Assembly (NCBI GenBank): GCA_964657465.1
Contig: CAZZVD010000002.1
Location: 1-62,731, forward strand
Direction of reading: 5' to 3'
From: an uncultured Acetobacteraceae bacterium
GTDB lineage: Bacteria > Acidobacteriota > Terriglobia > Terriglobales > Acidobacteriaceae
Length of the DNA stretch: 62,731 bases
Every line of letters starts with the position of its first letter. Position 1 is the first letter of the stretch. This document shows, piece by piece, positions 20,782 to 39,473 of this stretch. The translations under genes were made by a program, and so were the position numbers. The notes below the pieces were generated by a model. The model saw nothing but the letters and a program-made list of their open reading frames with translations. It searched no databases and was not told the DNA's origin.

Positions 20782-22002
20782 TTAGCCGCGGAACCGGATA
20801 GCCTCAGCAATTCGCATACGGTTCATGTGAAACATCGAAGGAATGGCGCTGACGAGTGTAATGAAAACGCTGCATAAAGCGGCCATGAGAGCGCCGGTAT
20901 AGCCGAGATGGGTCGTACCGAGGATGTGGCCGGAAGGAAGCGTGGCGGCGGCCGAAAGAATAAGCTCGACACACGGCACGCTGAGCATGGCTCCTAACAG
21001 CGTAATCAGGCCCGCCTCGGATAGGGTAAGAGCAATTACCGCTGGTTTCGAATAGCCAAGAACTCGCATAATGGCGAGCTCGCCCAGACGTTCGCTTGTA
21101 TTGAGCGCAATGGTCGTAGCGGTTATCAAGAGCAGAGTAAAGGCTGTAGCAGCGGCGATCCAGGTCATAAACCGCTGAATGCTGCCCAAACGAGCAATGG
21201 ATTCCAGCGCATAGGCTGACTCCGTCTCGGTCCTGGTGGGTTGAGGAGCGTTGTGAAATTCCTGATCGATAGTGGCCATAACCGCATTGACTGAGGCAGG
21301 GCTGTCTACACGAGTAACAAAGATTCCTTCCAGTCCCTTGAGGTAAGGCACGGAATCGGCCAGAGGTTGCCAAGGGAAAAGAAGAGCATCCCAGCCATTC
21401 GGGGAATCGAAAATCGTACGCACGGTCAACTGTAAGTCGACCGGGGTGATGGTGCCTTTGAGCAGTATGCGGTCATTGAGTTTCCAACCGTAACGATCAG
21501 CGAGCAGGCGAGGCACAGCCGCGCCGGAAGGGTCCTTCTGGAAGGCTGCGATTTCGGCGGCGGGAGCTTTCCACTCAGGGTAGATAGTGAAGATTTCCAT
21601 TGGGTCCGTACCGTATTGAGGAAAAAAATTTGCGGCCGTACCGTCTTTGTAGGTGCCGCCAAAAAAATTAAGCTGGGCGATTGCAACAACTCCTGGGATT
21701 TTGCGGATGTGCTCGCGATAATATGTCAGTATCGGGAAGAACAGCGAAACGCGATTTCGGGTGAGAAGACGGACGCCCTGTTCGCCGCTGCCAGAAGTGC
21801 TGTAGAAGCGGCTCCAGACGCTCCAGAGCAAGCCGAGAACCACAAAAAAAACTGTAACGCTCGCCAGGTTGGAAGCACTACGTCGTGGGTTGCGGAACGC
21901 GTTTGTGAAAATCAGGCTGATCCACGTCATAAACGAAACAGCACCTGTACCCTGTCGTTCTCTTTGCGACTTCATCGTGTCATCAAAGGCATAGCAGGTC
22001 AA
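20782..22002 (-). CDS. ABC transporter permease, FtsX/MacB/LolC type
   Basis: An N-terminal TM helix, a large periplasmic domain and a C-terminal FtsX 3-TM bundle (RVLGYSKPAV...). Confidence 0.8.
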   Translation of the reverse strand: MTCYAFDDTMKSQRERQGTGAVSFMTWISLIFTNAFRNPRRSASNLASVTVFFVVLGLLWSVWSRFYSTSGSGEQGVRLLTRNRVSLFFPILTYYREHIRKIPGVVAIAQLNFFGGTYKDGTAANFFPQYGTDPMEIFTIYPEWKAPAAEIAAFQKDPSGAAVPRLLADRYGWKLNDRILLKGTITPVDLQLTVRTIFDSPNGWDALLFPWQPLADSVPYLKGLEGIFVTRVDSPASVNAVMATIDQEFHNAPQPTRTETESAYALESIARLGSIQRFMTWIAAATAFTLLLITATTIALNTSERLGELAIMRVLGYSKPAVIALTLSEAGLITLLGAMLSVPCVELILSAAATLPSGHILGTTHLGYTGALMAALCSVFITLVSAIPSMFHMNRMRIAEAIRFRG

Positions 22003-22110
22003 TTAAAAAGCCAGGATTTCTTGGTGCAGACTCGCGAAGTTTGATATAAAAACGTTGTCCTTTGTATTTCCCCTTTAGCTCGCCAACCAAACATTCCTTG
22101 TGGTGCTCTT

Positions 22111-22854
22111 GTGTCAGTTTCCGATAGCAGCGTGCCACTGTTACAGTTTGTCAGTGTTTTCCAGCGTATGCCTGCGTCTGCAGGGAACCTCATTATTGAT
22201 GCATCGTTCGCTTTGCACGCCGGCGACCGGATATGCATCACGGGCAAATCTGGAAGTGGCAAGACAACCCTTCTCAGCCTGGCAGGCGGATTGCAGGATC
22301 CAACGGGGGGAAGTGTTCTATATCGAGGGATCTCCTGGAAAGAAATGCCGTCAAAGGAGCGGGTGCTGCGCCGCGGTAAGTCCGTGGGATTTGTGTTTCA
22401 GAGTGCCAATCTAGTGCCTGTGATGACTGCATATGAGAACGTTGCCTACGCATTGATGCTTGGCGCTCCACACATTGGCGATGCGGAGCGCAGAGCGTTG
22501 ACCTTGCACGCACTGGAAGTGACTGGATTGGCGGACCGGCGGTCGGCGCGCCCGGGGACCATGAGTGGCGGTGAATGTCAGCGTCTGTCGGTCGCCCGCG
22601 CCATGGTGAAGTCACCGGCGCTGGTGCTTGCAGACGAGCCAACATCGCACCTCGACGACGAAAATGCTGAGCTGGTCATTCGATTATTTGAAGATTCGCA
22701 TCGCGCATATGGGGCTGCGTTTTTGATCGTGTCACACGATCGAAGACTTGTTTCCGTGTATCGAAAAACATTTTCGCTGCATAACGGCAGATTGGCAGTT
22801 GAATCCGCAACGTCTGCAGGAACATATTCCAAAGCGCTGCAGGGCACAGGATGA
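22111..22854 (+). CDS. ABC transporter ATP-binding protein (LolD/MacB-type)
   Basis: Walker A GKSGSGKTT, signature MSGGECQR, Walker B LVLADEPT. Confidence 0.85.
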   Translation: MSVSDSSVPLLQFVSVFQRMPASAGNLIIDASFALHAGDRICITGKSGSGKTTLLSLAGGLQDPTGGSVLYRGISWKEMPSKERVLRRGKSVGFVFQSANLVPVMTAYENVAYALMLGAPHIGDAERRALTLHALEVTGLADRRSARPGTMSGGECQRLSVARAMVKSPALVLADEPTSHLDDENAELVIRLFEDSHRAYGAAFLIVSHDRRLVSVYRKTFSLHNGRLAVESATSAGTYSKALQGTG

Positions 22855-24089
22855 ATTCGTTTCGACTCGCGATTCTGAATACATTTCGCAACCGCCGCCG
22901 CGCAGGCTTGACCATTGTGCTCATTGCCGTCGCGACTGCCGGCTTGGTGGATAACCAGGGCTTGATCTCGTTTATATTCGATGGGCTGAGAGACGAAGCA
23001 ATCTACGGCCGATATGGCCATGTTCAGCTTTATCGCGCTGGTTATGCACTCGGCCACCGCCATGCCCCCTACAGCTTCCTAATATCGGATCAGGACTTTC
23101 GCGAGGCGCAGGAAAAACTTCAGAAGACACCGGGCGTCGAGCAGGTTCACGCCGATCTCTCCATGCCGGCCGTGCTTTCTTCGGGCAGCCACAAAGCAAC
23201 AGCAATCGCTCTGGGCGTTGAACCGTCTGCGCTGCAAACCCTCTCGAAAGCGAAGCTGGTTGCAGGGAAAGAAGATCTTTCCGATGCAGGTGCGCAGCCA
23301 TCTGTTTTGCTCGGGCGCGGGCTGGCGGAAAAGCTCGAGGCTCGGCCTGGCGACATGATCAACGTGATGGTTGCCACCGAAGACGGCTCTTACAATGCCG
23401 CCGATCTGATGGTGCAGGGTATTTTTGAGGAGGGTTTCCGTGACTTCGACGACTGGTCGATCAAATTATCACTGCCTGCACTGCAACGCCTCTCCGGGCA
23501 AGCCGGCGTAGAAACGATCAAAATTCTTTTGCACAAAACCGCCGACACCGCCGCTCTGCAGCGCTCGCTCGAAAGCGACCCCGCATTTACACAGAGGCTG
23601 CACCTGGAAACCACTTCCTGGAAGGATATGGCGGTCTTCTACGGACAGGTCGTCGCCATGTTCGGGAAGGAACTGGCGGCTATCCGAATCATCATCGAAA
23701 TAATTGCATTTCTCGCTGTTGTGATTTGCATCACCTTGTCGTTCGCGGAACGCGAACGCGAAATGGCTGTCTTGTTAGCCATGGGGATGACACGTATGCA
23801 CCTCATGCTTCTGTTCACCCAGGAGACGCTTTGCCTGGGGGTTGCCGGAGCCGTTCTCGGCAGCTTGTTTTCGATCGTGGGCGCAGTGGCCATCTCCGCC
23901 ATCGGCATTTCAATGCCACCACCACCGGGCTCTACGGTTCCTTTCATCGCGCGGGACGAATTGTCCCTACAGGTCTTGTTGCAATATGCGTTGCTTGCAT
24001 TGGGAGTTTCCCTGCTGGCGTCGCTTGTTCCTGCGCTGTGGATCAGCAAGCTGAATGTAGCGAACGCGTTGCGCCCTGAGGAGGGGTGA
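22851..24089 (+). CDS. ABC transporter permease, FtsX/LolE type
   Basis: ATGA overlap with the ATPase gene. FtsX C-terminal domain (LLAMGMTRMHLMLLF...). Confidence 0.8.
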   Translation: MNSFRLAILNTFRNRRRAGLTIVLIAVATAGLVDNQGLISFIFDGLRDEAIYGRYGHVQLYRAGYALGHRHAPYSFLISDQDFREAQEKLQKTPGVEQVHADLSMPAVLSSGSHKATAIALGVEPSALQTLSKAKLVAGKEDLSDAGAQPSVLLGRGLAEKLEARPGDMINVMVATEDGSYNAADLMVQGIFEEGFRDFDDWSIKLSLPALQRLSGQAGVETIKILLHKTADTAALQRSLESDPAFTQRLHLETTSWKDMAVFYGQVVAMFGKELAAIRIIIEIIAFLAVVICITLSFAEREREMAVLLAMGMTRMHLMLLFTQETLCLGVAGAVLGSLFSIVGAVAISAIGISMPPPPGSTVPFIARDELSLQVLLQYALLALGVSLLASLVPALWISKLNVANALRPEEG

Positions 24090-24092: not shown

Positions 24093-24881
24093 ATGGCGAT
24101 TGTTCAGGTGCTATTGGTCACAAGAAGCCCATTCTATGCTGACGTCCTTAGTCGTATCCTGACCCGCGATCGAAACATACGACTGAATGTTGCGCCGGAA
24201 TTCATGTTGGCCCTGCCCCCGAACTCGGCGGCCGGCGCCTCTTGGATTGTTATCTACGACCTTGATTCGACACATTTGACCTTCGATGCCTACATGAACC
24301 AGATTGCGTCGCGTCCCCATCGTCCAAAGGTGTTGCTTTACCAGGACAATCTGGTCGAAGACGACCTGCTCTACTACTTAAGCCGGGGCACCCATGGTTG
24401 TATCCAGGCCTCCAAGGTGAATACCCTGCTCCTCCCGGTGTTGAAACATATTGCCTCAGGGGGAGTATGGTTTCCGCATAAAGTGATCGCCAGGTTTATT
24501 GAGCGCGTTGTCTGTGAGATGAGCCAGGTGTGCCGTTTGTTCCAGAGTCATCCGCTGGTCTCCAAGCGCGAATGCGAGGTCTGGGCGTTGATCAGCAGCG
24601 GTGCTTCAAATAAAGAGATTGCCAGCAGGCTGTTAATTTCAGAGCGTACCGTTAAGTTCCACGTGAGCCATCTGTTCGAGAAACTGGATGCTTCGAATCG
24701 CCGGGAGCTGATGGTTTTGTTCGGACAGAATGAACCGCAGTTCGGGTCAGAGCAAACGCTCAAGAGTAGTATGGGCCGGGGTTCCGGGAGCAGTGAAGTG
24801 GGGTTTGGGGCAAGACTAAGTGGCGGAAAGACCTCCGTCAACCGCAATACACTGCCCGGTCAGATAGCTCGCGTCTTCTGA
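24093..24881 (+). CDS. LuxR/NarL-family transcription regulator with receiver-like N-terminal domain
   Basis: C-terminal HTH: SKRECEVWALISSGASNKEIASRLLISERTVKFHVSHLFEKL. Starts 3 nt after the permease stop. Confidence 0.8.
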   Translation: MAIVQVLLVTRSPFYADVLSRILTRDRNIRLNVAPEFMLALPPNSAAGASWIVIYDLDSTHLTFDAYMNQIASRPHRPKVLLYQDNLVEDDLLYYLSRGTHGCIQASKVNTLLLPVLKHIASGGVWFPHKVIARFIERVVCEMSQVCRLFQSHPLVSKRECEVWALISSGASNKEIASRLLISERTVKFHVSHLFEKLDASNRRELMVLFGQNEPQFGSEQTLKSSMGRGSGSSEVGFGARLSGGKTSVNRNTLPGQIARVF

Positions 24882-25568
24882 GAGGAGGAAGAGGCCGACG
24901 CGCACTGCTTCTGCGATGGAGCCGGTGCGCTTTAAGGGAATTTGCTGTGTCGCAATCTTCGTCTGTGCTTCGTTCAAGCTCTTCGCCATTCCGCCATCGA
25001 GTAAACCCGGTAAGAGGGCATTGACTCGTATGCCAAAACCCCCCATCTCGACCGCGAGCGCGCGGGTAAATCCCAGCAGTCCTGCCTTGGCCGTACAGTA
25101 ATTGGTTTGACCGGCTACTCCCTTCAACGCGCTCACCGAAGCGACGTTCAAGACAGCGCCTTTTCGTTTGCGCGCCATTTGCATGACAATCGGTTTGGTA
25201 AAGCTGTAAATCCCCATGAGGCTGGTCTCAATCACGGACTGCCACTCGTCGGGTTGCATCATCACTAAAAGTTTGTCGTGCGTAATGCCGGCGTTATTGA
25301 TGAGTATGTCCACGGAGCCCCAGTCCTTAGGCAGCAGGGCGATTGCCTCTGCCCCGGCGTCGGGATTCCGGACATCCGACCGAATCCCGAGCAAGCGGCA
25401 GGGTGCAGCGATTAAACTCAGGGCCTGGGCACTTTGCTGCTTCTGATGCCAGGTGAAGGCGACCCGCGCTCCTGAAGCAAGAAGGTGCTCGATGAAGCCA
25501 CGGCCGAGCGCACCCGTGCCCCCGGTTACCATCGCCGTGCGGTTTGCGAATACTGGTCTGTCCTCCAC
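24816..25568 (-). CDS. fabG: 3-oxoacyl-ACP reductase (SDR, FabG-like)
   Basis: TGGTGALG cofactor motif, NNAG, and the catalytic YCTAK (YxxxK). Confidence 0.85.
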   Translation of the reverse strand: MEDRPVFANRTAMVTGGTGALGRGFIEHLLASGARVAFTWHQKQQSAQALSLIAAPCRLLGIRSDVRNPDAGAEAIALLPKDWGSVDILINNAGITHDKLLVMMQPDEWQSVIETSLMGIYSFTKPIVMQMARKRKGAVLNVASVSALKGVAGQTNYCTAKAGLLGFTRALAVEMGGFGIRVNALLPGLLDGGMAKSLNEAQTKIATQQIPLKRTGSIAEAVRVGLFLLSEDASYLTGQCIAVDGGLSAT

Positions 25569-25617
25569 GCTGAGCCTCGACTCTCCCCCAATATAAATGT
25601 CTACCTGCGTTTCGTCC

Positions 25618-26664
25618 CTATTGGATCGTAGCTTTGCCGGGTTGATCCCAAAGAAGATGAAGGTCGGTATCGATGTATGTTTCCAGTCCCCGCGCTTGCT
25701 CTACGTAATGGATTAAATGCGCGTCATCCAAAGCGAGACGCTCATCGAGTCTTGCGTAACCGGGATAGTGCTGGCCGCCGATGCGCCACCATTCCCGTGC
25801 ACCGCGCAATAGCGAGGCACGCTGGCTGGAACTTACGCTGGTGTCGGCAGCCTTGACATAGCTGTCGCCGAGGGCGGTGTAGGCCTCCGCAAATATGCCC
25901 AGCCCCTGATCGCGAACCGAAGGTGCTTCGGAAAGGGCAATGCAGCGTTTGAGATCAGCGATGGCCAGAGGTAGCTTGCCGGCGAGGGACGGCCAATAAA
26001 GATAGTTCAACCCTCGTCCGTATAGGGCGCCAACCATATTGGGATTTTCCTGGATGGCCTGCGACAGGCGCTCGATCGAGAGGGAGGAAAGGCGTGCTTT
26101 TTGCTCCCGTCCTCCTTCGCGAATCATCAGGTCCACATACGAAAGGCCAAGCTGAAGATTCAATGCAGCGGATGCATCTGCGCGGGTCAGGTCGATGAAG
26201 GTCTTCACCGGCATGGCGGTTGCGGGATCGTTGTCCGCGGGGGCATCCTCAGTCAGGGCCAGTTGCTGTACGGTGCCGGTGGAATTTTGAGCAAGTCCGG
26301 CGAGCGGAGACGGTAGCGCTTCGGGTGAGATAGCGAACTGCTTCTGGAGGATGGTCAGAAACCGTATCCCCTGACGGTACTGGTTGCCTACACATAAGTC
26401 GTCGGGCTTGCTTGCGAGTTTGCGCCGCAGATCCTCCACGGTGTCTTTGAGATGGGCGAGGTCGTGATCGGGGCGCAGATCGCCGCAGGAAGACGATCCG
26501 ATCAGGACGCCTAGTCCCGCCGCATCCGGATAATTGGTAATCGCCGGCAAGGTCAGGATTTTTTGCTGTAATTGGCTTGGACGCCAGTAGAACAGGTAAG
26601 AGCCTGCGCCGAGAAAGAAGCACGCCAGGAGTGCCGCGGTCGTTCCGATGACCCGTCGTTTCAT
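25618..26664 (-). CDS. Membrane-anchored hypothetical protein (helical-repeat-like C-terminal domain)
   Basis: The start is at ATG 26664 (GAGG RBS, MKRRVIGTTAALLACFFLGAG TM anchor). The upstream 330 codons of the 679-aa ORF in the track overlap the DUF1702 gene in another frame and are discounted. Confidence 0.6.
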   Translation of the reverse strand: MKRRVIGTTAALLACFFLGAGSYLFYWRPSQLQQKILTLPAITNYPDAAGLGVLIGSSSCGDLRPDHDLAHLKDTVEDLRRKLASKPDDLCVGNQYRQGIRFLTILQKQFAISPEALPSPLAGLAQNSTGTVQQLALTEDAPADNDPATAMPVKTFIDLTRADASAALNLQLGLSYVDLMIREGGREQKARLSSLSIERLSQAIQENPNMVGALYGRGLNYLYWPSLAGKLPLAIADLKRCIALSEAPSVRDQGLGIFAEAYTALGDSYVKAADTSVSSSQRASLLRGAREWWRIGGQHYPGYARLDERLALDDAHLIHYVEQARGLETYIDTDLHLLWDQPGKATIQ

Positions 26665-26680
26665 ATGCATCCTCGCTTTT

Positions 26681-27700
26681 TCATCGTGTATAGGCTGGAG
26701 CGGCTTCATCCAGCAAAGGAGCCCGTTGCCATGCAAGCTCCGGTATGGCAGTGTTCCGCAGAGCCTCGCGCCATTCCATGTAAGTATGTCCCTGATCCCA
26801 AAGGGAGTCATAGAGCTCGCCGGCCCGGTGCGCACCTTCGAGCAGAGCAGGTTGTTGCTGCAATGACAGGGTTTCGCTAAGAAAGGAATGGTTGGTGTAG
26901 GAGCGGGCGAATAAGCCGATGAAGAGGCCCGTCGCGAAATCGCCCTTGTATTGTGTTTCGAGGGATTCCAGCTGTATGAGTGCGGCGTTCGCGTCCCGGC
27001 AACCAGCAAATCCGGCTGCAATACCGTAGCCCGTAGCCAAATCGACGGCATGCTCCGGAGCCAGGTCCCGGGCCATGGAGCTGAAATCAATTGCCGCCGG
27101 AAGAATAAACCATAGCGCCCTTCCGACACCTTCATAGTAGCCTTTCCGCTGTGCGGTGCCCCAATCGCCACGAGGCCGCATCGAGCGGCCCATACGGAAG
27201 CCGAAGATGGTTTGGGCAAAACCAAAGCCATCGAGCCACAGTGAGTCGAGCCGCGGATCAGGCAGGCTGCCGCGTTGGGTGGGGAGGCTTGGACGCAGGC
27301 GAGCCATGCCTGCGGCAAAGCCCAAGCCGATGGTAAGCAGAAAGTGATGGTTTTGATGGCGTTGCCAAAAAGTGGCGAGCGACTCGCGCTTGCGAAACGG
27401 GTCGATTTGTTGCCGCAGATACATCCCGCTGCAAATTCCCTCAAGGGTAAATGGACGTGAGAACGCGCTGCAATCGTCGGCCAATTGGTTAATGCGTGGT
27501 GTTTCGCGAAAAATCCCGGCGGCGAGCCCGCGTAAGAAATAGCCAACAACCTCACACCGCACACGCATCGCCGTTCGATCTTTGCCAAAGCCCAGCAGAA
27601 TGCGCGGATCAAAGTGCTCGAGCAGGTAAGGTGCAATGAAAAACCAGAGCGCGGCACCGATCACGATGAAAGCAGGAAGTAAAACGACTGGCCAACTCAA
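26681..27700 (-). CDS. DUF1702-family protein (enediyne-cassette E3/UnbL-like)
   Basis: Blocks DPRLDSLWLDGFGFAQ and YYEGVGRALWF match my recollection of the DUF1702 consensus. A TTG start at 27700 overlaps the upstream KS stop (TTGA); ATG 27730 is the alternative. Confidence 0.6.
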   Translation of the reverse strand: MSWPVVLLPAFIVIGAALWFFIAPYLLEHFDPRILLGFGKDRTAMRVRCEVVGYFLRGLAAGIFRETPRINQLADDCSAFSRPFTLEGICSGMYLRQQIDPFRKRESLATFWQRHQNHHFLLTIGLGFAAGMARLRPSLPTQRGSLPDPRLDSLWLDGFGFAQTIFGFRMGRSMRPRGDWGTAQRKGYYEGVGRALWFILPAAIDFSSMARDLAPEHAVDLATGYGIAAGFAGCRDANAALIQLESLETQYKGDFATGLFIGLFARSYTNHSFLSETLSLQQQPALLEGAHRAGELYDSLWDQGHTYMEWREALRNTAIPELAWQRAPLLDEAAPAYTR

Positions 27701-28980
27701 CGGGACGCCCCCTTTTGTCGAAAGACGCACGATGCATGAAAGCCTCCGAAGCCGGTAGATGCCTTGACCCAGGTTCTGATCCGCGTTTTGGTGTGTTGGG
27801 TCACTGGACGCAGAGACAGGCGTGGATCAGGCTCTTCGCAGTTCAGGGTGGCTGGTACGATCCCTTGTTCGAGGGAGAGCAAAGTGAGAATGAGCTCGAG
27901 GATTGCGCTGCCGGCGAGTGTATGCCCGATATATGGTTTGAGCGCCGTCGCGAGGAGGAGGTCGAGATGCGCGCCAAACACCGATGCGATGGCGTCGCTT
28001 TCGTATTTATCCTGCAGAGGACTGGCAGCGCCATGGGGAACGATCAGGTCAATTTCCTCGGCAGAGCATTGGGCACGATCAAGCGAATCCTGCAAAGCCA
28101 TGGAGTAGTAGTTAGGGCGCATGCAGGGAACCGTCAACTTCCACGCGTCGCAGGCGAACGCTCCCGAAAGGTACTCGGTGTAGGGGGTGCGTCCGCGGGC
28201 AGTAGCGTGCTCCTGCGATTCGAGAAGCAGCGCGCCTGCGCCTTCGCCTAGCAGAAATCCATTTCGCCGCCGATCAAACGGGCGCATGATTGGGTCGCCC
28301 GTACAGGCTTTGGCGGCATTGAGCCACAGGTATCGGGTGACCTGTCGTGGGCTGTCGCCCCCGACTACAAGCATGGCATCCACATGCCCGCCGCGAATCC
28401 AGGCGGCCGCTGTTTCGAGCGCGAATAAGCCCGAAGCACAAGCATTGTTCACGATTTGAGCGGGCCCGTGGGCGCCGAGCAGCCTGGTGAGGCGCTGCAG
28501 CAGAACGAAGGAGTGAGTCTCGTACCCCGCATCCTGAATTGTTTGATACGTGTCAGTGATAAAACGGAGCGCGCTCTCCGGAGGCTTGGCGAAGGCGCCG
28601 GATATCGACTGCCAGATCTGGCTGGTGTACTCATCGAAGCCGGGATTCTCATGGGCCACGACCACACCGATCCGGGGCATGGAATCGGCGGACAGTCCAG
28701 CATCTTCGACGGCCAGTCGACAGGCCGCAAAGAAAAGAGCCAGGTTCCGGCCATTCCGGTTGTTGATGGCAGGGCTGGAAAACTCGCTGCCGATAACATG
28801 CAACAGTTGTTGATCGTCGACGGTAGCCAGCGTAAATTCGCCCAGGCTGAAGCCGTCCAGGGTCTCTCGATGCACGGCAAAATTCTGCCGGCGGGCTTCG
28901 ATTGAATGCCAGACATCTTCCTTGCCCACGCCAATCGAGGTGACGGGCCCGAGCCCGCTGATCACAATCTCTCGGCTCAA
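27697..28980 (-). CDS. Beta-ketoacyl-ACP synthase (KAS I/II-like, catalytically complete)
   Basis: Active-site Cys (NNACASG) and both His blocks (VPHGAAS, YIGHTLAGS). A TTG start at 28980 overlaps the upstream stop (TTGA) and gives the typical N-terminus SREIVISGLGPVTSIG. Confidence 0.85.
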   Translation of the reverse strand: MSREIVISGLGPVTSIGVGKEDVWHSIEARRQNFAVHRETLDGFSLGEFTLATVDDQQLLHVIGSEFSSPAINNRNGRNLALFFAACRLAVEDAGLSADSMPRIGVVVAHENPGFDEYTSQIWQSISGAFAKPPESALRFITDTYQTIQDAGYETHSFVLLQRLTRLLGAHGPAQIVNNACASGLFALETAAAWIRGGHVDAMLVVGGDSPRQVTRYLWLNAAKACTGDPIMRPFDRRRNGFLLGEGAGALLLESQEHATARGRTPYTEYLSGAFACDAWKLTVPCMRPNYYSMALQDSLDRAQCSAEEIDLIVPHGAASPLQDKYESDAIASVFGAHLDLLLATALKPYIGHTLAGSAILELILTLLSLEQGIVPATLNCEEPDPRLSLRPVTQHTKTRIRTWVKASTGFGGFHASCVFRQKGASR

Positions 28981-30170
28981 TGAGTCTTCCTCGAAGCAGG
29001 CAGAGCCAGGGCAAGAACCCCGGCGCAATCCGCATAATCAAAAGAATTCACCAGAAAAGCGGGGTGCTCATAGGAGCGCGGCTTGCGCACCAGATCGATT
29101 GCGGGCAGCCGTGGGTCGTAGGCGGAGCGCCCCAGGGTGGGAGGGCACAGCCGCTGCGCAGAGGAGGCAACCACCGCGGCAATGGCCAGGTACGGACCAG
29201 CGGAGCCACATTCGCCCAGCGCCCCCTTCAACGCGGTGATGGGCGTTTCTTTGCCGAAAACATCTGCCAGAGCGATGGCCTCTTCGGCATCCGAGTCGCT
29301 GCCCCTGGCGCTCGCCATGACAGCGCCTATGTCCCCCGGGCGCAGGCTTGCGGCATCGAGGACCTCCCGCGTGAGTCGACTGTAGGCGCCGGCAGCCGGC
29401 TGGTTACTTGACACCGCCACTGCCAGGATCTCGGCCAGGACGGGTACCTTTCTGCGGCGTGCCTCATCAGCGCTCTCTACCAGCAAAGCTACCGACCCTT
29501 CTCCCAGGACATAGCCGCCCCGCGATTGGCCGAATGGATCTGCGGCTTCAGCATCGAATTCTTCGCGGCTCGAGAGAAAAGAGAGTAATTCGAGAGAGAT
29601 GTCTTCACTGGTGACACAAAGGCATTGATCGCACGCGCCGATACCAATCAGTTGCGCGGCTCGGCCGAGTGCGGCAAGGCCGGAGATGAGACCGTTGGAT
29701 ATCGTAAGGTTGAAAGCCTCTGCCTGAATGGCGATCGACAAATAGCTGGCGGAGGCATGCATGATAGTGTTGGGGAATTGCATGGGGCTGGCGCGGCCCA
29801 GACCATACTCACGCATCTCCGTGCGGTAATCATAGAGGGATTTCAGATTGCCGTGCATCGTGCAGTGAATGACTCCCAATCGCGAACGATCGAACTCAGT
29901 GCCGAGCCGCGCGCCAGCCAGGGAACGCCGGGCCGATTCCAAGGCAAGCCCCGTAGCGCGGCCAACAGGCCAACCCTTCGGACCCACGGGTTTGACTTTG
30001 GCTGGTGACGTTCCAAGCAACGTTTCGTTCGATTTTCTGCCCAGACGGCGATGCTGTAACCCGGACTGACCGGACAATAAATGGTTGGAGAAGGTCCGCG
30101 TGGTACAGCCAAGTGAACTAGTCAGCCCGATTCCGGTGATTACGAGCGGAGAATCCTGCTGGGAGTCCAT
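28977..30170 (-). CDS. KS-like protein lacking the catalytic cysteine (chain-length-factor-like)
   Basis: Thiolase-fold KS homology (PLVITGIGLTSSLG...). The active-site block reads ISNGLISG instead of xxACxSG. ATG 30170 lies 2 nt after the upstream TAA. Confidence 0.75.
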   Translation of the reverse strand: MDSQQDSPLVITGIGLTSSLGCTTRTFSNHLLSGQSGLQHRRLGRKSNETLLGTSPAKVKPVGPKGWPVGRATGLALESARRSLAGARLGTEFDRSRLGVIHCTMHGNLKSLYDYRTEMREYGLGRASPMQFPNTIMHASASYLSIAIQAEAFNLTISNGLISGLAALGRAAQLIGIGACDQCLCVTSEDISLELLSFLSSREEFDAEAADPFGQSRGGYVLGEGSVALLVESADEARRRKVPVLAEILAVAVSSNQPAAGAYSRLTREVLDAASLRPGDIGAVMASARGSDSDAEEAIALADVFGKETPITALKGALGECGSAGPYLAIAAVVASSAQRLCPPTLGRSAYDPRLPAIDLVRKPRSYEHPAFLVNSFDYADCAGVLALALPASRKTH

Positions 30171-30172
30171 GG

Positions 30173-31336
30173 TTAGCAGGTTCCGAGCACTATGGCGCAA
30201 TTGCTACCGCCAAAGCCGGCGGACATCTTTAAGACCCGGCTCACGCGCTCTTCTCTTGGTTCGTTCGGCACGCAGTCGATGTCGCAATCGCCGGCGGCCT
30301 TTTTGAAGTTCCACGTGGGAGGAATGCAATGGTGGACCATGCTCAAGAGGCAACCTATGGTTTCGATGGCTCCAGCGGCGCCCATGGTGTGACCCAATAC
30401 CGCTTTCAACGAATTCATAACTGGTTTCTGATTGCCCCCGGCGAACACCTGAGTAATGGCGATGCATTCGGCGCGGTCGTTCGCGAGCGTTGCGGTGCCG
30501 TGGGCGTTGGTGTAGTCCACGTCCGCAGGCGCGAGATGCGCCATCTCGAGCGCCTTCCTTAAGCTTGCAGTCATGCCGGCTGCCTTAGGGTGAGGGTGAA
30601 TGATGTGGTGACTGTCTGCACTCATACCAAAGCCAAGAACCTCCGCGTAGATCTGTGCGCCGCGCCTATGTGCCTTTTCTAAAGGCTCCAGGAGCATCAC
30701 GCCGGCACCCTCACCGACGAGAAAACCAGACCGGTCGGAATCGAAGGGACGGACCGCATCACTGGTGAGTACATTCAGGCTGGCGAAGCCGGAAAAGCAA
30801 ACCGAGGAGAGACCTTCCGTGCCGCCGACCAGCATCGCGTTCAGGCGCCCTCCGCCGAGTTGCAGGATTCCATCAACGACTGCCGAGGTCCCAGCCGTGC
30901 ACGCTACCGGAAGGGTCGATACAGGTCCCCAAAGCTGAAGGGTTTCGGCAACAATCTGCGCCGGCGACCGGGTGGGCGCGAACAAGCCATCGCCACTGAC
31001 AGCACGTTCGAAAAGCCTTTCCGAGTGGCCCGAAGCGGTTCCCAGGGAAATGCCGATCTCGCCGTCTTCATGGCTATTCTCAATTCCGCTGTCGTGCAAC
31101 GCCTCCTGCGCCGCCGCAAGAGCGTAGAGCGCGGCGTCACTGATGTCCCCATGGACGGGCAAGCGTTCCAGGCCATCAACGCGGCACACTGACCCACAAC
31201 GGCTGTTGCTGTCGGCAGCCCAGGGAAGCGATTGGATATTGGAGGCGCCTTCGAGAAGTCCGCGCCAGAAATCTTTTTTACCGGTCCCAGAGGGGCTTAC
31301 GACTCCGACGCCGGTGACGACAATCCTGCTTCGCAT
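30173..31336 (-). CDS. Beta-ketoacyl-ACP synthase II-like (FabF-like)
   Basis: MRSRIVVTGVGVVSPSG N-terminus, active-site VACTAGT, NAHGTAT and LGHTMGAAG His blocks. Confidence 0.85.
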   Translation of the reverse strand: MRSRIVVTGVGVVSPSGTGKKDFWRGLLEGASNIQSLPWAADSNSRCGSVCRVDGLERLPVHGDISDAALYALAAAQEALHDSGIENSHEDGEIGISLGTASGHSERLFERAVSGDGLFAPTRSPAQIVAETLQLWGPVSTLPVACTAGTSAVVDGILQLGGGRLNAMLVGGTEGLSSVCFSGFASLNVLTSDAVRPFDSDRSGFLVGEGAGVMLLEPLEKAHRRGAQIYAEVLGFGMSADSHHIIHPHPKAAGMTASLRKALEMAHLAPADVDYTNAHGTATLANDRAECIAITQVFAGGNQKPVMNSLKAVLGHTMGAAGAIETIGCLLSMVHHCIPPTWNFKKAAGDCDIDCVPNEPREERVSRVLKMSAGFGGSNCAIVLGTC

Positions 31337-31350
31337 GGCGTGAATCCTTC

Positions 31351-31602
31351 CTAGTGAACCTCTATCGTGCTGATCTCGCGGATCAGCTCAATCACTGAGC
31401 GCGGAGACATCATCTCGGGAAGTCGGCTATCGGGTATCTCGATATGAAACTCGCGCTCCAATCGCATAATCAATTCCAGAGAAATGATTGAATCGATTCC
31501 GGACTCGTAGAACGACTGATCCATATCGATCTGGTTCTGCATCGTCACTTTGCGCAGAGTGGTCAAAACCCGTTCGTCGATCGTATCGGTATGCAATGGC
31601 AT
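31351..31602 (-). CDS. Acyl carrier protein
   Basis: 83 aa with a phosphopantetheine attachment motif GIDSI in the helix II context (ESGIDSIISLELIMRLE). Confidence 0.8.
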   Translation of the reverse strand: MPLHTDTIDERVLTTLRKVTMQNQIDMDQSFYESGIDSIISLELIMRLEREFHIEIPDSRLPEMMSPRSVIELIREISTIEVH

Positions 31603-31801: not shown

Positions 31802-33553
31802 TTGGCGCATCCCGCGCCCCATAGGAAGGTACGAAGCAGAGATATCCGGGGTGATGCGATCAGTTACACTTCCAGACTGAAACTAAGGAGCCCAAAGACC
31901 AGGGATTGCTTGTGGGTCTTGCTTCTTGTGACAGTTTCGGTAGCTTTTTACGCCGTGACCATCGATAGATCCTCTTATCTTTACATTCTGCGGGCGGACG
32001 AAGGCTACGGTTTTTCCGCCGCTGTGCGGACGGCAAGCGGTCAGATTCCGCAAAAAGATTTTAGCTATGCCTACGGTCCCATCATGCCTTTTGTCTATGC
32101 AGTCTCTTTTAAGCTGCTGGGCGTCAGCCTTTATGCGATGAGGGCGACCTGGGCGCTGCTGTACACGGTGAGCGTGGTTCTTTTCTATGGGATAGCCCGG
32201 CAGATTTTGCCAGCACTGCCATCGGCGACCGCAGCTATCTGCCTTGTAGGACAACTCCACCCACCGTTGTATTCCTACAACCATGTGGGTTTGGTCATCG
32301 CAGTGCAGGCGGCTTTATTGTTGGCCATGCGTTTGCTCGTTGAACCCGGCAGACTTCGGCTTTGGGCCGCGTTGTCAGCGATGTTTACGCTGGCCTTCCT
32401 GATCAAGTTCAACGAAGGGCTGGCGGTGATCGCGTTTCTTTCCGCCGGGTTCGGTTTATGGCTTACCCGCAAGGGCATCGGGCTGCCAAACCGGAAGGTA
32501 TTCATGCTCCGGTGGTTGGCTGTGTGTACCGTGCCGGTGTTGCTTTTTGCCGCCGTGACCTTTGGGCTGAATTACCAGCTTACGGCCGCCGAGTTCTGGA
32601 GAAATTTCCCGGTTCTGCCGGAGTATCACGCAAGTGTCGGCGGGTACCAGTTCGTTCTCAGGCTGTTGACTTCTCCCGTTCATTTGAAAATGGACGGAGC
32701 TTCCGCTTGGAAATGGTGGAGCTTGTGGTACGAGAACTACGTTCTCGCGGTGTTGGCAAGCCTTGCAGCCGGGATAGCCGCACTCCTGTGTCTCGGCGCC
32801 TTTTTCGCATTCAGACTGCGCGATTCTATGAGCGGCGATACCTGGAATGCCGTGTTGTTGGGTTGCTGCGTGCTGGCTCTTTATCACGAGTTTTATCTAA
32901 CCGGAAATCATTGGGCAACACCGATGTATCTGGGGTTCGCGGTCGTTTTTGGAGTGTGGCTCGTGTATCGACTCGCGGCGCCTCTCCCTGCGGTTCGCTA
33001 CGCCGCTCTCGCCCTGCTCTTTGGTGTCTCCGCCGCCTCATGTGTGACCTACTACATGGTTGGCCGAATGTATTTTTCGCAGTACGATTTGAGCTTACAG
33101 CGAGCTCGCATCCGGAGCTCGTCCGACAGCGATGCGTCTACTGTGCAGCAGGTGGTCGATTACATCCAGCACACCACGCCGGCGGGCACTGCGATGGCTG
33201 CTTTCCCGCACGACAGTCTTTTGCTGCACCTGGCCGGACTGCCGAACGGATTGCGTGATGACGACTACCAATGGATGCTGTTCCCTACGGAGGATTCCGA
33301 TGCACAGCTGACCGCAGAATTGAAGCGTAAACAGATCAGCCGGCTGCTCATCTCTAACTTCGTCGGCTTTCGTGGAAGAAAGCTTATGTTTTTCGGCCAG
33401 GACTATCTTCCTCAGACCTATCAGTACATCCTCTCTGCATATCACCCTGTTCAGACCTTTGACAATGGCCTCAGCGGATATGCTGTCACTTACTACGAAA
33501 GCAACACTTCTGGTTCCGCGGCCGTTGCTGCGTTGAACGGAGCGCAAAAATGA
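31802..33553 (+). CDS. Polytopic membrane glycosyltransferase, GT-C fold (ArnT/PMT, GT39/83-like)
   Basis: More than 10 predicted TM segments. An early-loop acidic motif (RADEGYGF). Large C-terminal soluble domain. The start codon is uncertain. Confidence 0.6.
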   Translation: MAHPAPHRKVRSRDIRGDAISYTSRLKLRSPKTRDCLWVLLLVTVSVAFYAVTIDRSSYLYILRADEGYGFSAAVRTASGQIPQKDFSYAYGPIMPFVYAVSFKLLGVSLYAMRATWALLYTVSVVLFYGIARQILPALPSATAAICLVGQLHPPLYSYNHVGLVIAVQAALLLAMRLLVEPGRLRLWAALSAMFTLAFLIKFNEGLAVIAFLSAGFGLWLTRKGIGLPNRKVFMLRWLAVCTVPVLLFAAVTFGLNYQLTAAEFWRNFPVLPEYHASVGGYQFVLRLLTSPVHLKMDGASAWKWWSLWYENYVLAVLASLAAGIAALLCLGAFFAFRLRDSMSGDTWNAVLLGCCVLALYHEFYLTGNHWATPMYLGFAVVFGVWLVYRLAAPLPAVRYAALALLFGVSAASCVTYYMVGRMYFSQYDLSLQRARIRSSSDSDASTVQQVVDYIQHTTPAGTAMAAFPHDSLLLHLAGLPNGLRDDDYQWMLFPTEDSDAQLTAELKRKQISRLLISNFVGFRGRKLMFFGQDYLPQTYQYILSAYHPVQTFDNGLSGYAVTYYESNTSGSAAVAALNGAQK

Positions 33554-35106
33554 AGGTGCTTCTGCTGTTTGCTAATACGCTCGCCGACCGCACTGCCCGC
33601 GAATCGAAAGGCACACGCATTGGCATCCTCCCCCCATTGGGTCTTGGATATATTGCAAGCGTTCTGCAGCGCGAAGGGCACGAAGTTCGCATTATCGATA
33701 CCCGCATCGATCCGATCACCCCAGGCGTGGCGGAGGAGATCGTAAGGTACGCACCTGGAGTCATCGGCATATCCATTTTCGTTATTTCGGAGATCGAGGG
33801 ATATAAGCTCGCCGAGACGATGAAGTCGCTGCTGCCCGACGTTCCCATCGTGATGGGCGGTCCGCAGGTCAGCTACTTTCCCCGTGCCCCTTTTGAACGC
33901 TGTGCGGCCGTCGATTTCACTGTTGAGGGCGAGGGAGAGTACACCATGCGCGACCTGGTGGCCGCCCTGGAAAACCACCAGCCTTTGGCGCCCGTAAAAA
34001 ATATTTACTATCGCGGTCTTGACGGTCAGGTTATTGCCACGGGAGGGCCGCACTCGATTCCCGATTTGGATGACCTGCCGCCGCCCGCGAGAGAACTATT
34101 CTCTCTCAAGCGGTATGCGCCTGAAGTCTACGAGTTTCGGTCCCTGCCCGCCACCAATATTCTGGCGACTCGTGGCTGCGCCTATGGACAATGCAGTTTC
34201 TGCTTCGAAGCGGGAAAGTTTCGTACCAAGTATCGTTACCTGTCGGCCCTGCGCCTTATCGAGGAGATCGAAAGCCTGCGTGATACGTACGGCTTTCGAG
34301 AGATAGTCTTCAACGACGATGATCTTTTGTCGAATGGCAAGCTTCTCATGGAGTTTTCTCGACTGGCCATCGAGCGGAATTTAGGTGTGCGTTGGAGCTG
34401 CTGGGGAAGGGTCACACCCTGCACCCGCAACCTTTTAGCCACGATCGCAAAAGCCGGTTGTTGGTTAGTTTCCTTCGGGATCGAGTCGGGAAATCAACAA
34501 TTGCTCGACAAACTGCAAAAGGGAATGACCCTGGAGAAATGCCGCCAGGTGGTCGGCTGGTGTCATGAGTTGGGCATCGAGGTGATGGGAACATTCATGT
34601 TGGCGATCCCGGGGGAAACTCCGGCAACGGCCCTGGAAACGATTCAGTTCGCCAAAGAGCTGGATCTTAGCTACGCGGCGTTTATCCCTACCCACCCGCT
34701 GTTCGGAACCCCGCTTTTCGAAACGTGTATTGAAGAGGGCAGGCTGGTGAAGTCGCCCTATCACCATGAAGCGGTAGAAACCCGATACCTTCCCAAAATC
34801 TCATTTGTTCCGGATGGATACAAGGATGAGCGCGAGGTAGAGCAAATGCTCAAGAAAGCCTACCGAAGCTTCTATATCAGGCCAGCGTATTTCCTTAAAC
34901 ATCTAAAAATGTTGCGGTCGTGGAGTGCAGTCAAAAAATACTATATCGGTGTGAAGTTTGCTTTGTCCCTTATGAACAATTGGGGTAATCCGCAGGATTC
35001 CCGTTACACGGTCCGCTACAGCAGTCTCCCGGAGTATGCCCCGGAAAAGGCGGTTTCCCTCGTCAATACGATAGGACCCGTAAAACTCACGCAACCTAAC
35101 TTGTGA
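33550..35106 (+). CDS. B12-binding-domain radical SAM enzyme, paralog of 14091-15533
   Basis: ATGA overlap with the upstream gene. N-terminal B12-binding block (PPLGLGYIASVL). The cluster motif is CAYGQCSFC (CX4CX2C). Confidence 0.8.
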   Translation: MKVLLLFANTLADRTARESKGTRIGILPPLGLGYIASVLQREGHEVRIIDTRIDPITPGVAEEIVRYAPGVIGISIFVISEIEGYKLAETMKSLLPDVPIVMGGPQVSYFPRAPFERCAAVDFTVEGEGEYTMRDLVAALENHQPLAPVKNIYYRGLDGQVIATGGPHSIPDLDDLPPPARELFSLKRYAPEVYEFRSLPATNILATRGCAYGQCSFCFEAGKFRTKYRYLSALRLIEEIESLRDTYGFREIVFNDDDLLSNGKLLMEFSRLAIERNLGVRWSCWGRVTPCTRNLLATIAKAGCWLVSFGIESGNQQLLDKLQKGMTLEKCRQVVGWCHELGIEVMGTFMLAIPGETPATALETIQFAKELDLSYAAFIPTHPLFGTPLFETCIEEGRLVKSPYHHEAVETRYLPKISFVPDGYKDEREVEQMLKKAYRSFYIRPAYFLKHLKMLRSWSAVKKYYIGVKFALSLMNNWGNPQDSRYTVRYSSLPEYAPEKAVSLVNTIGPVKLTQPNL

Positions 35107-37437: not shown

Positions 37438-37470
37438 GGAGCCGGACTTGTGAGCCCGGCTCCATTTTCT
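37438..37470 (+). terminator. Rho-independent terminator after the selenoprotein candidate
   Basis: GGAGCCGG (37438-37445) pairs with CCGGCTCC (37456-37463), followed by attttctcatttt. Confidence 0.6.
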
Positions 37471-37518
37471 CATTTTCGACTCACGAGAGTCATTGTTCTA
37501 CAAGGATGGAGGAAGTCG

Positions 37519-37971
37519 ATGGAAGGTTTGCAGGTAAGAAAGACGGAGCCGTTGCACGTCGTGAGCTTTAAGCATAAAGGTCCATATCAAAATCTGCCCA
37601 AAGCGTATGAGCAGTTTGGTGGTTGGCTGGGACAGTCGAAAGCGCCAACGGCCGGATATTTTCGGGAGATTGGATACGACAACCCAATGATGACTCCGCC
37701 CGAAGAATGCAGGCAGGAGATATGCGTGCCTCTGGCCGGTCACGTAGTACCAGGAAATGGTGTGGAGGTAAAAACGTTACCCGTCGTCGAAGTAGTCTCG
37801 ATGGTGCACAAGGGAGGTCTCGATTTTGAATCGGTGGGGCCCACCTACCAGGCGATGATGAAGTGGTCTGCCGAACAACAACGGCCAACCACGTACTCCA
37901 TCATTACTTATTACACATCTCCAGATGAGAGAACCAACGCTGAAGTAGAAATCGCACTGGTTCTTGCGTAG
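37519..37971 (+). CDS. GyrI-like small-molecule-binding domain protein
   Basis: GGAGG RBS 6 nt upstream of ATG 37519. Pattern ...VVSFKHKGPYQNLPKAYEQF...YFREIGYDNP...EICVPL typical of GyrI-like/AraC-effector-binding domains. Confidence 0.65.
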   Translation: MEGLQVRKTEPLHVVSFKHKGPYQNLPKAYEQFGGWLGQSKAPTAGYFREIGYDNPMMTPPEECRQEICVPLAGHVVPGNGVEVKTLPVVEVVSMVHKGGLDFESVGPTYQAMMKWSAEQQRPTTYSIITYYTSPDERTNAEVEIALVLA

Positions 37972-39472: not shown

Positions 39473-39473
39473 C

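Follow-up and report, generated by a model that had tools for sequence, protein, structure and literature searches.

A rare Acidobacteriota gene cluster combining three discrete ketosynthase-type proteins with homologs of enediyne accessory proteins

The window, a stretch of 62,731 nucleotides of Acidobacteriota DNA that was analysed at full length, carries a conserved gene cluster in which homologs of the enediyne accessory proteins E3, E4 and E5 occur with three discrete ketosynthase (KS)-type proteins in place of an iterative type I PKSE (Table 1). The cluster covers roughly 7.3–53.6 kb of the window, or about 46 kb, with a seven-gene operon as its likely chain-building core; it is rare and comes from soil Acidobacteria. 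Judging from gene content, we give about an even chance to a reading in which a dissociated polyene synthase lacking an enoyl reductase (ER) feeds E3/E4/E5-type chemistry, the product then being tailored and exported. As three separate KSs stand in for the giant enzyme beside E3–E5, the cluster could make polyyne or enediyne-like compounds by a route so far unrecognised.

Table 1. Positions of the cluster features within the window, with supporting matches
Feature	Position	Strand	Evidence or remark
FabZ-like 3-hydroxyacyl-ACP dehydratase (DH), N-terminal extension	13469..14098	-	PF07977; FabZ model 75.6 bits, cut-off 113
B12-binding radical SAM (B12-rSAM) enzyme 1	14091..15533	+	68-70% identity in L085, L002
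Benzoate-CoA-ligase-like adenylating enzyme	17727..19142	+	TIGR02262, 324 bits, cut-off 375
LolCDE-like transporter: FtsX permease (-), ABC ATPase (+), MacB/FtsX permease (+)	20782..24089	mixed	kept in L002
LuxR-family regulator	24093..24881	+	at cluster edge in relatives too
FabG-like 3-ketoacyl-ACP reductase (KR; SDR)	24816..25568	-	PF13561, E 6e-53
TMTPR, 350 aa, N-terminally anchored, conserved Cys-containing soluble domain	25618..26670	-	sub-threshold TPR match only
DUF1702 protein, enediyne E3/UnbL homolog	26681..27730	-	PF08012, 93.8 bits, cut-off 25
KS_C, second catalytic ketosynthase, Cys-His-His intact, N-terminal half divergent	27697..29028	-	KS domains, E 3e-24 and 3e-20
KS_B, CLF-like non-catalytic KS homolog	28977..30200	-	weak KS domains, E 2.5e-14 and 8e-9
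KS_A, catalytic ketosynthase, Cys-His-His intact	30173..31336	-	two KS domains, E 1e-28 and 5e-33
ACP, dedicated, 83 aa, GIDSI serine motif	31351..31602	-	PF00550, E 8e-12, 45.7 bits
PMT_2/ArnT-like membrane glycosyltransferase, divergent from ACP operon	31802..33553	+	45-48% identity in L002, L004
B12-rSAM enzyme 2	33550..35106	+	69-72% identity in L001, L004
Tailing block: GyrI-like binding protein, LolA-like+FGE-sulfatase fusion, SAM methyltransferase, GT2, NAD-epimerase/dehydratase, cupin	37450..42442	+	conserved; found alike in L001, L004, L091, L092, L093
MacAB-like efflux set: ABC ATPase, HlyD-type adaptor, MacB/FtsX permease	42907..46154	-	assigned to the cluster by position only
Small secreted protein, paralog of 7854-8417	49963..50490	-	cluster-associated in relatives
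UnbU/E5 homolog, polytopic membrane protein, distantly RnfD/NqrB-like	50515..51468	-	PF03116, 35.5 bits
UnbV/E4 homolog, FG-GAP repeats and UnbV_ASPIC domain, N-terminal anchor	51472..53634	-	PF07593, 78 bits, cut-off 23

The seven tightly packed minus-strand genes described in the earlier note were all found, at 24816–31602, in the order ACP, KS_A, CLF-like KS_B, KS_C, DUF1702, TMTPR and FabG-like KR. Spacings computed from the longest ORFs are +14, -28, -52, -34, +10 and +49 nt, and at its 3′ end the KR gene shares 66 nt with the convergent LuxR gene. Chance does not account for this arrangement, since ACP-KS-KS-KS-DUF1702 is seen again in at least nine independent metagenomic or MAG loci, at 31–60% protein identity. 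A longer order, ACP-KS-KS-KS-E3-E4-TMTPR-E5, is contiguous in seven related loci with enough sequence (including L001, L004 and L090–L093), one of them an Acidobacteriota MAG, and is partial in L084–L088, where L085 retains KS_C to E5. The window is an exception, with E4 and E5 lying 20 kb from the KS operon, and this counts against our reading. Trees of the three KSs agree in separating the window and L002 from the rest, and the repetition of this topology in three clades indicates that the operon was inherited as a unit.

The earlier proposal of a dissociated KS/CLF system that has an ACP and a KR to itself is borne out by the catalytic residues. In KS_B the triad is substituted (Cys to Leu, His to Ser, His to Glu), and all three residues are gone in 8 of 8 orthologs; KS_A and KS_C retain them. 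KS_A is probably the elongating subunit and KS_B its partner, a heterodimer supported by their best PDB sequence matches, 9s5h_B (285 bits) and 9s5h_C (109 bits), which are chains of one KS/KS-like heterocomplex (9s5h/9s5i). KS_C may act in priming or in a second elongation. A Foldseek search with the KS_A model places the ishigamide KS 6kxd_A first (TM 0.93, E 1e-44). The ishigamide system (Iga11/Iga12), a highly reducing type II polyene PKS, likewise pairs a Cys-His-His KS with a CLF lacking the catalytic Cys and uses discrete KR and DH with no ER, but identity is only about 35%, FabF structures score nearly as high, and the window has in addition a third, catalytically competent KS and coupling to E3–E5. 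Because KS_A is about equally close to FabF and to the ishigamide KS, KS similarity alone is not predictive of a polyene.

The earlier note had also raised the possibility that these are housekeeping FabF proteins. They are not, because each forms its own clade, their scores against the NCBIfam FabF equivalog (316, 132 and 199 bits) are below the cut-off of 494, and the operon lies inside a conserved specialised cluster. The ACP scores under all housekeeping AcpP cut-offs in NCBIfam; the KR, which L002 likewise carries, reaches 231 bits with TIGR01830 (cut-off 298). Beyond the family, the KSs have their nearest relatives in KS-KR-ACP-DH-KS loci of Omnitrophota, beside housekeeping plsX-fabHDG-acpP-fabF; close 9s5h relatives (57–60% identity) are of this type, and unlike the window their loci are without E3–E5. 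This kinship would suit a specialised envelope lipid, along the lines proposed for ladderane or other unusual lipids of bacteria, in which a FAS-like KS set would make unusual acyl chains and the two B12-rSAM enzymes would methylate, cross-link or cyclise them ahead of glycosylation and export. Two conserved B12-rSAM genes do flank the KS operon (the second adjoins the ACP gene in most relatives), and glycosyltransferases and Lol-like transport are present in the cluster. However, the rSAM enzymes, at 110 and 98 bits, stay far below the 360-bit cut-off of the ladderane-type TIGR04072, the strictly conserved E3-E4-E5 trio is left unexplained, and the great rarity of the cluster family is hard to square with a core membrane lipid. 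We consider such a lipid improbable.

The DUF1702 protein had been listed as an oddity within the KS operon; it is indeed present there, but its identity as a homolog of E3/UnbL, from the enediyne ‘warhead’ cassette, was missed. In enediyne BGCs, DUF1702 is annotated as ‘enediyne biosynthesis protein’ (PMC7692728), and the five conserved enediyne core proteins are PKSE, its thioesterase, E3, E4 and E5 (PMC10760148). We see about 500 DUF1702 relatives in PKSE-type enediyne loci. In the window protein, a hydrophobic helix at the N terminus precedes an all-alpha body (AF2 model, pLDDT 80.6), and a search with this model gave no PDB fold match. The E4 homolog is 56–64% identical to the product of the gene after DUF1702 in L001, L004, L084 and L085, and 26–30% identical to actinomycete E4. 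UnbV_ASPIC/FG-GAP proteins are common outside enediyne clusters, which weakens our reading. In phmmer, the E5 homolog matches the ORF after UnbV at E 1e-11 to 1e-19 in about 40 actinomycete loci, and those ORFs also match PF03116 weakly. The distant UnbV and UnbU homologs had not previously been linked to the KS operon. TMTPR, earlier called a membrane protein, is membrane-anchored, but by a single N-terminal anchor with a soluble domain, and is no polytopic transporter. It is a family-specific marker, lying between E4 and E5 in relatives; a search of 1.84 billion proteins gave only 3 representative clusters at E ≤ 1e-30.

Among the scanned PKSE-type loci, mostly from actinomycetes, all but one of those with a KS match have it in an ORF of 1900–2400 aa (the exception being L054, with a 544-aa ORF), and neither a discrete KS nor TMTPR was found. 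Nine loci of the window's family have TMTPR and three KS proteins of <520 aa, or the sole KS remaining on a truncated contig, and no PKSE was found in the family's loci. This is a clean dichotomy between type I PKSE and three discrete KSs. Compared to the minimal actinomycete enediyne cassette (PKSE, E10, E3/UnbL, E4/UnbV, E5/UnbU), the window has all three accessory homologs, its relatives keep the E3-E4-E5 order, and the chain-building KS, ACP, KR and DH functions, with no ER, are those of PKSE. However, these functions are spread over three KS-type proteins and free ACP, KR and DH; the host is an acidobacterium; E4 and E5 are remote from E3 in the window; there is an extra conserved TMTPR; and the tailoring set is unrelated (two B12-rSAMs, LolA-FGE fusion, GT2, ArnT-like glycosyltransferase). 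An E10-type hotdog thioesterase was not detected in the window, a further point against our reading.

In the pathway we propose, a type II set (the KS_A/KS_B pair, KS_C, ACP, FabG-like KR and FabZ-like DH, with no ER) would replace the iterative type I PKSE. The starter in the window would be an aryl or other acid, for which the benzoate-CoA-ligase-like enzyme, confined to the window and L002, is a candidate activator; a thiolase would fill the starter role in other variants. Malonyl units provided via the cell's own FabD would be condensed, every round being reduced and dehydrated and never enoyl-reduced, to leave a conjugated polyene on the ACP. No enoyl reductase families were found among the window proteins scanned. 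In the other variant the operon has no KR or DH closer than 10 kb, which argues against our reading; polyene formation there would need housekeeping FabG and FabZ. The membrane- or periplasm-anchored E3, E4 and E5 homologs and TMTPR may then process the polyene as happens after PKSE; in enediyne producers, E3–E5 processing comprises desaturation to polyynes and cryptic halogenation. Two B12-rSAM enzymes, the methyltransferase and glycosyltransferases would tailor the product, and the LolA-like and LolCDE/MacAB-like systems could carry it to the envelope or outside the cell.

The surrounding inventory in the earlier note was recovered throughout: FabZ-like protein, two B12-rSAMs, benzoate-CoA-ligase-like enzyme, methyltransferase, GT2, LolA-like protein, FtsX/ABC transporters and sel genes. 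At this level the suggested parallel with aryl-polyene (APE)/flexirubin type II clusters stands, as these also combine KS/CLF and an extra KS with ACP, KR, DH, aryl-acid ligase, methyltransferase, GT2 and LolA-like protein. The product could then be a protective pigment lipid of the outer membrane, an aryl-primed polyene that is methylated and glycosylated or lipid-anchored, with E3, E4, E5 and TMTPR serving membrane handling or attachment and no alkynes formed. The lack of an ER, the Lol-like exporters, and the fact that E3, E4, E5 and TMTPR are each membrane-anchored or polytopic agree with this. Assignment to the family fails, however: the KSs are not ApeO/ApeC-like (KS_A gives 140 bits with ApeO, 6qsp, against 231 with FabF and 285 with 9s5h_B), and no matches were found for ApeI/ApeP-type DH, MMPL or LPLAT, the cluster having E3–E5, TMTPR and B12-rSAMs instead. 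Two departures already noted, the paired B12-rSAMs and FtsX-type rather than MMPL export, were confirmed. Moreover, seven variant-A loci lack the aryl ligase, KR and DH, and outside the window's family E3 occurs almost exclusively beside PKSE, so that we think a pigment lipid rather unlikely.

Interleaving with selenium genes is real, the window also carrying selA, selB, selD and tRNA-Sec, but does not hold as a biosynthetic feature. In a selenium-metabolite cluster, SelD would give selenophosphate, and GT2 and the FGE-sulfatase-domain protein would install Se by analogy with SenC, SenB and SenA in selenoneine synthesis. The gene selD lies within the cluster in both the window and the distant relative L002, the cluster span also takes in selC-selA-selB, and the FGE-sulfatase domain gives 96 and 93 bits with the C-terminal regions of EgtB and SenA. 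The SenA score is nevertheless far under the 420-bit cut-off, with a LolA-like domain in place of the DinB-type iron domain; none of the cluster genes showed an in-frame UGA; and the seven other cluster copies whose sequence is long enough to tell have no sel genes. SelD itself is an ordinary equivalog (379 bits, cut-off 125), 68–70% identical to Acidobacteriaceae SelDs of contiguous selD-selA-selB operons, values that equal or exceed the 66% to the L002 copy. We regard a selenium metabolite as highly improbable. Because one inversion accounts for the split, the selenium genes are best explained as an ordinary Acidobacteriaceae selD-selA-selB housekeeping operon, divided here by that inversion.

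All seven tightly packed minus-strand genes that the earlier note had read as ACP-KS-CLF-KS-DUF1702-membrane protein-KR were found as described, with families assigned by Pfam (see table). Spacing between successive genes is, in order, +14, -28, -52, -34, +10 and +49 nt. The DUF1702 protein, correctly placed inside this ketosynthase (KS) operon and left uninterpreted in that first reading, is by homology an E3/UnbL-family protein. Members of the DUF1702 family in enediyne clusters carry the annotation 'enediyne biosynthesis protein' (PMC7692728). The five conserved core proteins of such clusters are the giant iterative type I synthase PKSE, its thioesterase, and E3, E4 and E5 (PMC10760148). 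A DUF1702 profile scan over one genome per species returned 521 relatives, nearly all of them in actinomycete PKSE loci. The best of them comes from an Acidobacteriota MAG (34% identity, E 1e-43), and the others are mostly actinomycete (Micromonospora, Salinispora, Actinoplanes, Amycolatopsis and others; E 1e-12 to 1e-18).

Genes of the KS operon and of the separate operon that holds E4 and E5
Gene	Position (nt)	Strand	Evidence
ACP	31351-31602	minus	PP-binding (Pfam)
KS_A	30173-31336	minus	both KS domains (Pfam)
KS_B	28977-30200	minus	weak KS domains (Pfam)
KS_C	27697-29028	minus	both KS domains (Pfam)
DUF1702 (E3/UnbL)	26681-27730	minus	PF08012, 93.8 bits against a cut-off of 25
TMTPR	25618-26670	minus	350 aa, one N-terminal hydrophobic segment; TPR match sub-threshold
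KR	24816-25568	minus	FabG-like SDR (Pfam)
E4/UnbV	51472-53634		56% identity to L001 protein; PF07593, 78 bits against a cut-off of 23
E5/UnbU	50515-51468		49% identity to L001 protein; PF03116, 35.5 bits

In the related locus L001, on an 886-kb contig, the DUF1702 gene is followed by genes for a UnbV_ASPIC protein, a homolog of the anchored marker protein TMTPR and a polytopic membrane protein. Searching the window by tblastn with these L001 proteins located E4 and E5. The window E4 is 26-30% identical to actinomycete E4 proteins over ~630 aa. The membrane protein is a true E5/UnbU homolog: in ~40 actinomycete loci it matches the ORF that comes directly after UnbV (phmmer E 1e-11 to 1e-19), and these actinomycete ORFs give the same weak RnfD/NqrB-like PF03116 signal. 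Two proteins of no known family, of 650 aa (15579-17531) and 296 aa (36540-37430), were also considered as UnbV or UnbU and showed no similarity to either. In relatives E4 adjoins E3; in the window E4, E5 and a small secreted protein form a tight operon of their own, 20 kb from the KS operon. Small secreted paralogs are encoded at 7854-8417 and 49963-50490, one of them directly downstream of the E5 gene, and give a weak match to a THAP4/nitrobindin-like beta-barrel; they are paired in tandem in L001, L085 and L090.

E3 consists of a hydrophobic helix at the N-terminus followed by an all-alpha body; its AF2 model is of acceptable quality (pLDDT 80.6), and a Foldseek search of the PDB gave no match to it below E 0.6. 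E4 carries an N-terminal anchor, E5 is polytopic, and TMTPR combines an anchor with conserved cysteines. Residues about 150-345 of TMTPR, its C-terminal domain, are found again in ~135 representative proteins that are built differently, some of them longer than 1000 aa, and look like an undescribed domain family.

The catalytic residues of the three KS proteins were assessed by aligning the window sequences with eight ortholog sets and PDB chain 9s5h_B. The Cys-His-His triad is intact in every aligned ortholog of KS_A and of KS_C. KS_B has lost it in all eight (8/8), with Leu/Ser/Glu at the triad columns in the window and differing residues between orthologs. Lacking all three residues, KS_B is a non-catalytic partner of the CLF type; the dissociated KS/CLF system with its own ACP and ketoreductase (KR) proposed in the earlier note was thus borne out. 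The top PDB sequence matches of KS_A and KS_B are 9s5h_B (285 bits) and 9s5h_C (109 bits), and because these are two chains of one complex they support a KS_A/KS_B heterodimer. Our literature search found no publication describing 9s5h. The AF2 model of KS_A (pLDDT 90) best matches 6kxd_A, from the ishigamide polyene KS/CLF (E 1e-44, TM 0.93), among the Foldseek structures compared, which did not include 9s5h; FabF structures fit almost as well.

The possibility that these KSs are housekeeping FabF/FabB of FAS II has to be weighed against their scores. With the NCBIfam FabF equivalog TIGR03150, whose cut-off is 494 bits, the three give 316, 132 and 199, and no fab gene context (fabD, fabG or acpP) surrounds the operon within the window, which is a complete 62.7-kb contig; together these results set the housekeeping reading aside. 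The KR and the FabZ-like protein also fall below their equivalog cut-offs. A KS phylogeny, which the earlier note had proposed, was built by neighbour-joining: KS_A, KS_B and KS_C form three separate clades, in each of which the window and L002 are sisters, and another, separate clade holds the PKSE KS domains. The nearest KSs outside the family, ~40% identical to KS_A and 57-60% to 9s5h_B, occur in Omnitrophota loci of the order KS-KR-ACP-DH-KS that adjoin the housekeeping fab genes. One of these loci, holding the next-nearest KS family (L094, 6822-12038), reads KS-KR-ACP-ApeP/ApeI-like dehydratase-KS-hydrolase-amine oxidase and lies directly upstream of plsX-fabH-fabD-fabG-acpP-fabF.

With a catalytic KS_A, a CLF-like KS_B lacking the active-site Cys, a discrete ACP, a FabG-like KR and a FabZ-like dehydratase (DH), the window resembles a highly reducing type II PKS. 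No enoyl reductase (ER) family was found in the window proteins scanned. Neither KR nor DH was seen within 10 kb of the operon in those relatives that carry a thiolase gene.

The string ACP-KS_A-KS_B-KS_C-E3-E4-TMTPR-E5 is contiguous in seven contexts (L001, L004, L085 and L090-L093, the L085 contig ending inside KS_C), and parts of it lie on shorter fragments (L084 and L086-L088). One flank usually carries a B12-binding radical SAM enzyme (B12-rSAM), a GyrI-like protein, a LolA-like protein fused to an FGE-sulfatase domain, a methyltransferase, a GT2, a cupin and an epimerase; the other carries a thiolase, a LuxR protein, a cupin and a second B12-rSAM. The window, in which the two B12-rSAM genes noted previously indeed flank the KS operon, and L002 represent a rearranged variant. 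Here E3-TMTPR-KR remain beside the KS genes, and the variant has KR, the FabZ-like DH and a benzoate-CoA-ligase-like enzyme but no thiolase. E4 and E5 lie outside the KS operon, and neither is on the 17-kb L002 contig.

The gene family is rare. A word search found nine DUF1702 relatives, and KS_A has ~22 close relatives before the score drops from 301 to 287 bits. A TMTPR profile search of metagenomes gave only six loci, a gauge of rarity that is too small for statistics, and when 1.84 billion proteins were searched exhaustively with HMMER, only three representative TMTPR clusters reached E ≤ 1e-30. Some side features of the window and its relatives can be recorded here. Window paralogs at 36342-37430 and 8442-9470 have no Pfam match; L001, L085 and L090 each have a gene associated with the cluster to which they show 55-62% identity. 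The homology of the 36.5-kb copy begins ~48 codons before its first ATG/GTG/TTG, which implies a non-canonical start or a lost N-terminus. The L090 cluster has, in addition, a third gene for a B12-rSAM and one for a membrane fatty-acid desaturase (PF00487, 2401-3306). At the edge of the L091 cluster (2711-4198), a gene resembling vanadium chloroperoxidase (PF22778), seen once only, is of interest because enediyne biosynthesis reportedly involves cryptic halogenation.

In encoding homologs of E3, E4 and E5 the window resembles the enediyne PKS cassette, but it lacks PKSE (KS-AT-ACP-KR-DH-PPTase, about 1900 aa) and has three discrete KSs instead; its largest ORF, at 910 aa, encodes a kinase. A tabulation over all loci separates the two types cleanly. 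In the PKSE-type loci, which come from actinomycetes, Herpetosiphon and Kapaibacteriota, the KS match, where present, lies in an ORF of 1900-2400 aa, with one exception (544 aa, in L054), and none has a discrete KS or TMTPR. The family to which the window belongs has three KS proteins shorter than 520 aa and TMTPR, without PKSE. No E10-type 4HBT/hotdog thioesterase was matched among the scanned window ORFs of at least 80 aa, a scan that remote homologs could escape.

A parallel with aryl polyene/flexirubin clusters had been drawn from the gene inventory. The FabZ-like DH, aryl ligase, methyltransferase, GT2 and LolA-like protein are all present, as that parallel held, but the KSs do not follow it: KS_A scores 140 bits against ApeO (6qsp), compared with 231 against FabF and 285 against 9s5h_B. 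The scanned window ORFs contain no ApeI/ApeP-type dehydratase, only a FabA/FabZ-type match, and no MMPL exporter or LPLAT-kind acyltransferase; LolCDE-like and MacAB-like sets are present, in keeping with the FtsX-type export noted before. The FlxB SDR model gives 185 bits against a cut-off of 340. We therefore reject aryl polyene/flexirubin as the family, since the KSs are not ApeO/ApeC-like and the expected DH, MMPL and LPLAT proteins are missing. Nor do the two B12-rSAMs fit the ladderane-type model TIGR04072: they reach 110 and 98 bits, far below its cut-off of 360. The FGE-sulfatase domain of the LolA-like fusion (37964-39472), which lacks the FGE catalytic cysteine pair, has as its best PDB match CalU17 of the calicheamicin cluster (73 bits, equal to FGE). 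This likeness was set aside as evidence, since FGE itself is matched just as well and the surroundings of E3 in 77 PKSE-type loci hold no FGE homolog.

The physical interleaving with selenium genes is real. The tRNA-Sec gene (13303-13396) and minus-strand selA and selB span 9846-13396, and plus-strand selD (19172-20242) lies 5.8 kb from selC-selA-selB, head to head with it. As to a selenium-metabolite cluster of the selenoneine (SenABC) type, the SenA model is matched in its C-terminal domain only (93 bits against a cut-off of 420). SelD reads as the housekeeping enzyme (379 bits against an equivalog cut-off of 125) and is 68-70% identical to SelD of Silvibacterium and Acidobacteriaceae, which places the window in Acidobacteriota; in the genomes of these groups compared, selD-selA-selB is a contiguous operon. 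No sel gene lies within 10 kb of seven other cluster copies, and no cluster gene of the window has an in-frame UGA, so the selenium-metabolite reading is rejected and the interleaving is most simply explained by a cluster that grew around a housekeeping sel operon. Starting from a contiguous selD-selC-selA-selB unit, the present arrangement would follow from a single inversion of the stretch bounded by selD and the FabZ-like gene, and the same selD position in L002 indicates that this inversion is old. For annotation, the apparent selenium-polyketide link is thereby settled as a rearranged housekeeping selDAB operon. Because selA in its longest ORF would run into the tRNA-Sec gene, translation probably starts 40-60 codons further downstream. 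In other Acidobacteriaceae (L095, 15584-15859; L096, 15452-15811) a T4_deiodinase-like gene, of a family that includes selenoproteins, lies just downstream of selDAB; none was seen in the window.

At the level of homology, it is well supported that this cluster of Acidobacteriota joins a type II synthase to an E3/E4/E5 module of the enediyne type. Identity and architecture have this support; the chemistry we infer. KS, ACP, KR and DH, acting without an ER, would give an ACP-bound conjugated polyene, the kind of product that PKSE, aryl-polyene and ishigamide synthases likewise make. The hydrophobic helix or anchors of E3, E4 and TMTPR and the polytopic E5 suggest that later steps likely take place at the membrane. 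In work on a diiodotetrayne by Gui et al. (2024), the enediyne cassette reportedly gives iodinated polyene and polyyne intermediates, and by homology the E3/E4/E5 trio would perform a desaturation of this kind in the present cluster. The radical SAM enzymes, methyltransferase, GT2, an ArnT-like glycosyltransferase and sugar-nucleotide genes suggest methylation and glycosylation, and the LolA-like domain and the LolCDE-like and MacAB-like sets suggest that the product is exported or delivered to the envelope. A possible role of the GyrI-like protein is to bind it. Taken together, we tentatively suggest, as a possible rather than a probable reading, an acidobacterial PKSE-independent route in which a type II KS/CLF/KS polyene passes to E3/E4/E5 and TMTPR and yields a new class of glycosylated metabolites, polyyne or enediyne-like in kind, that are exported or stay with the envelope.

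To our knowledge, E3, E4 and E5 are the least understood enediyne proteins and have so far been described alongside the giant PKSE, and almost no natural products have been characterised from Acidobacteriota. Small, separable KS, ACP, KR and DH proteins beside the trio imply that it is not bound to PKSE. The cluster thus offers a modular system for sorting out the individual roles of E3, E4 and E5, and it points to TMTPR as a fourth conserved partner. Enediyne genome mining looks for the KS domains of PKSE or for PKSE together with E4 (PMC10308959, PMC10760148), and a family of the window type would therefore escape detection; if the PKSE-independent route is true, all KS-based enediyne genome mining would overlook its products.

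Scans for promoters and terminators gave counts no higher than in shuffled sequence, and Rfam found no riboswitch, its sole matches being tRNA-Sec and tRNA-Leu. A PhnD/PhnC/PhnE-like ABC importer of the phosphonate/phosphite type (46425-49776), with the MacAB-like efflux genes on one side and the E5-E4 operon on the other, is probably unrelated cargo. Two further genes are not near the cluster in relatives: a Rv1679/FadE16-family acyl-CoA dehydrogenase gene (54236-55393), divergent from UnbV, and one that fuses a TusA-like segment to a DUF455/AurF-like di-iron domain (56670-57980).
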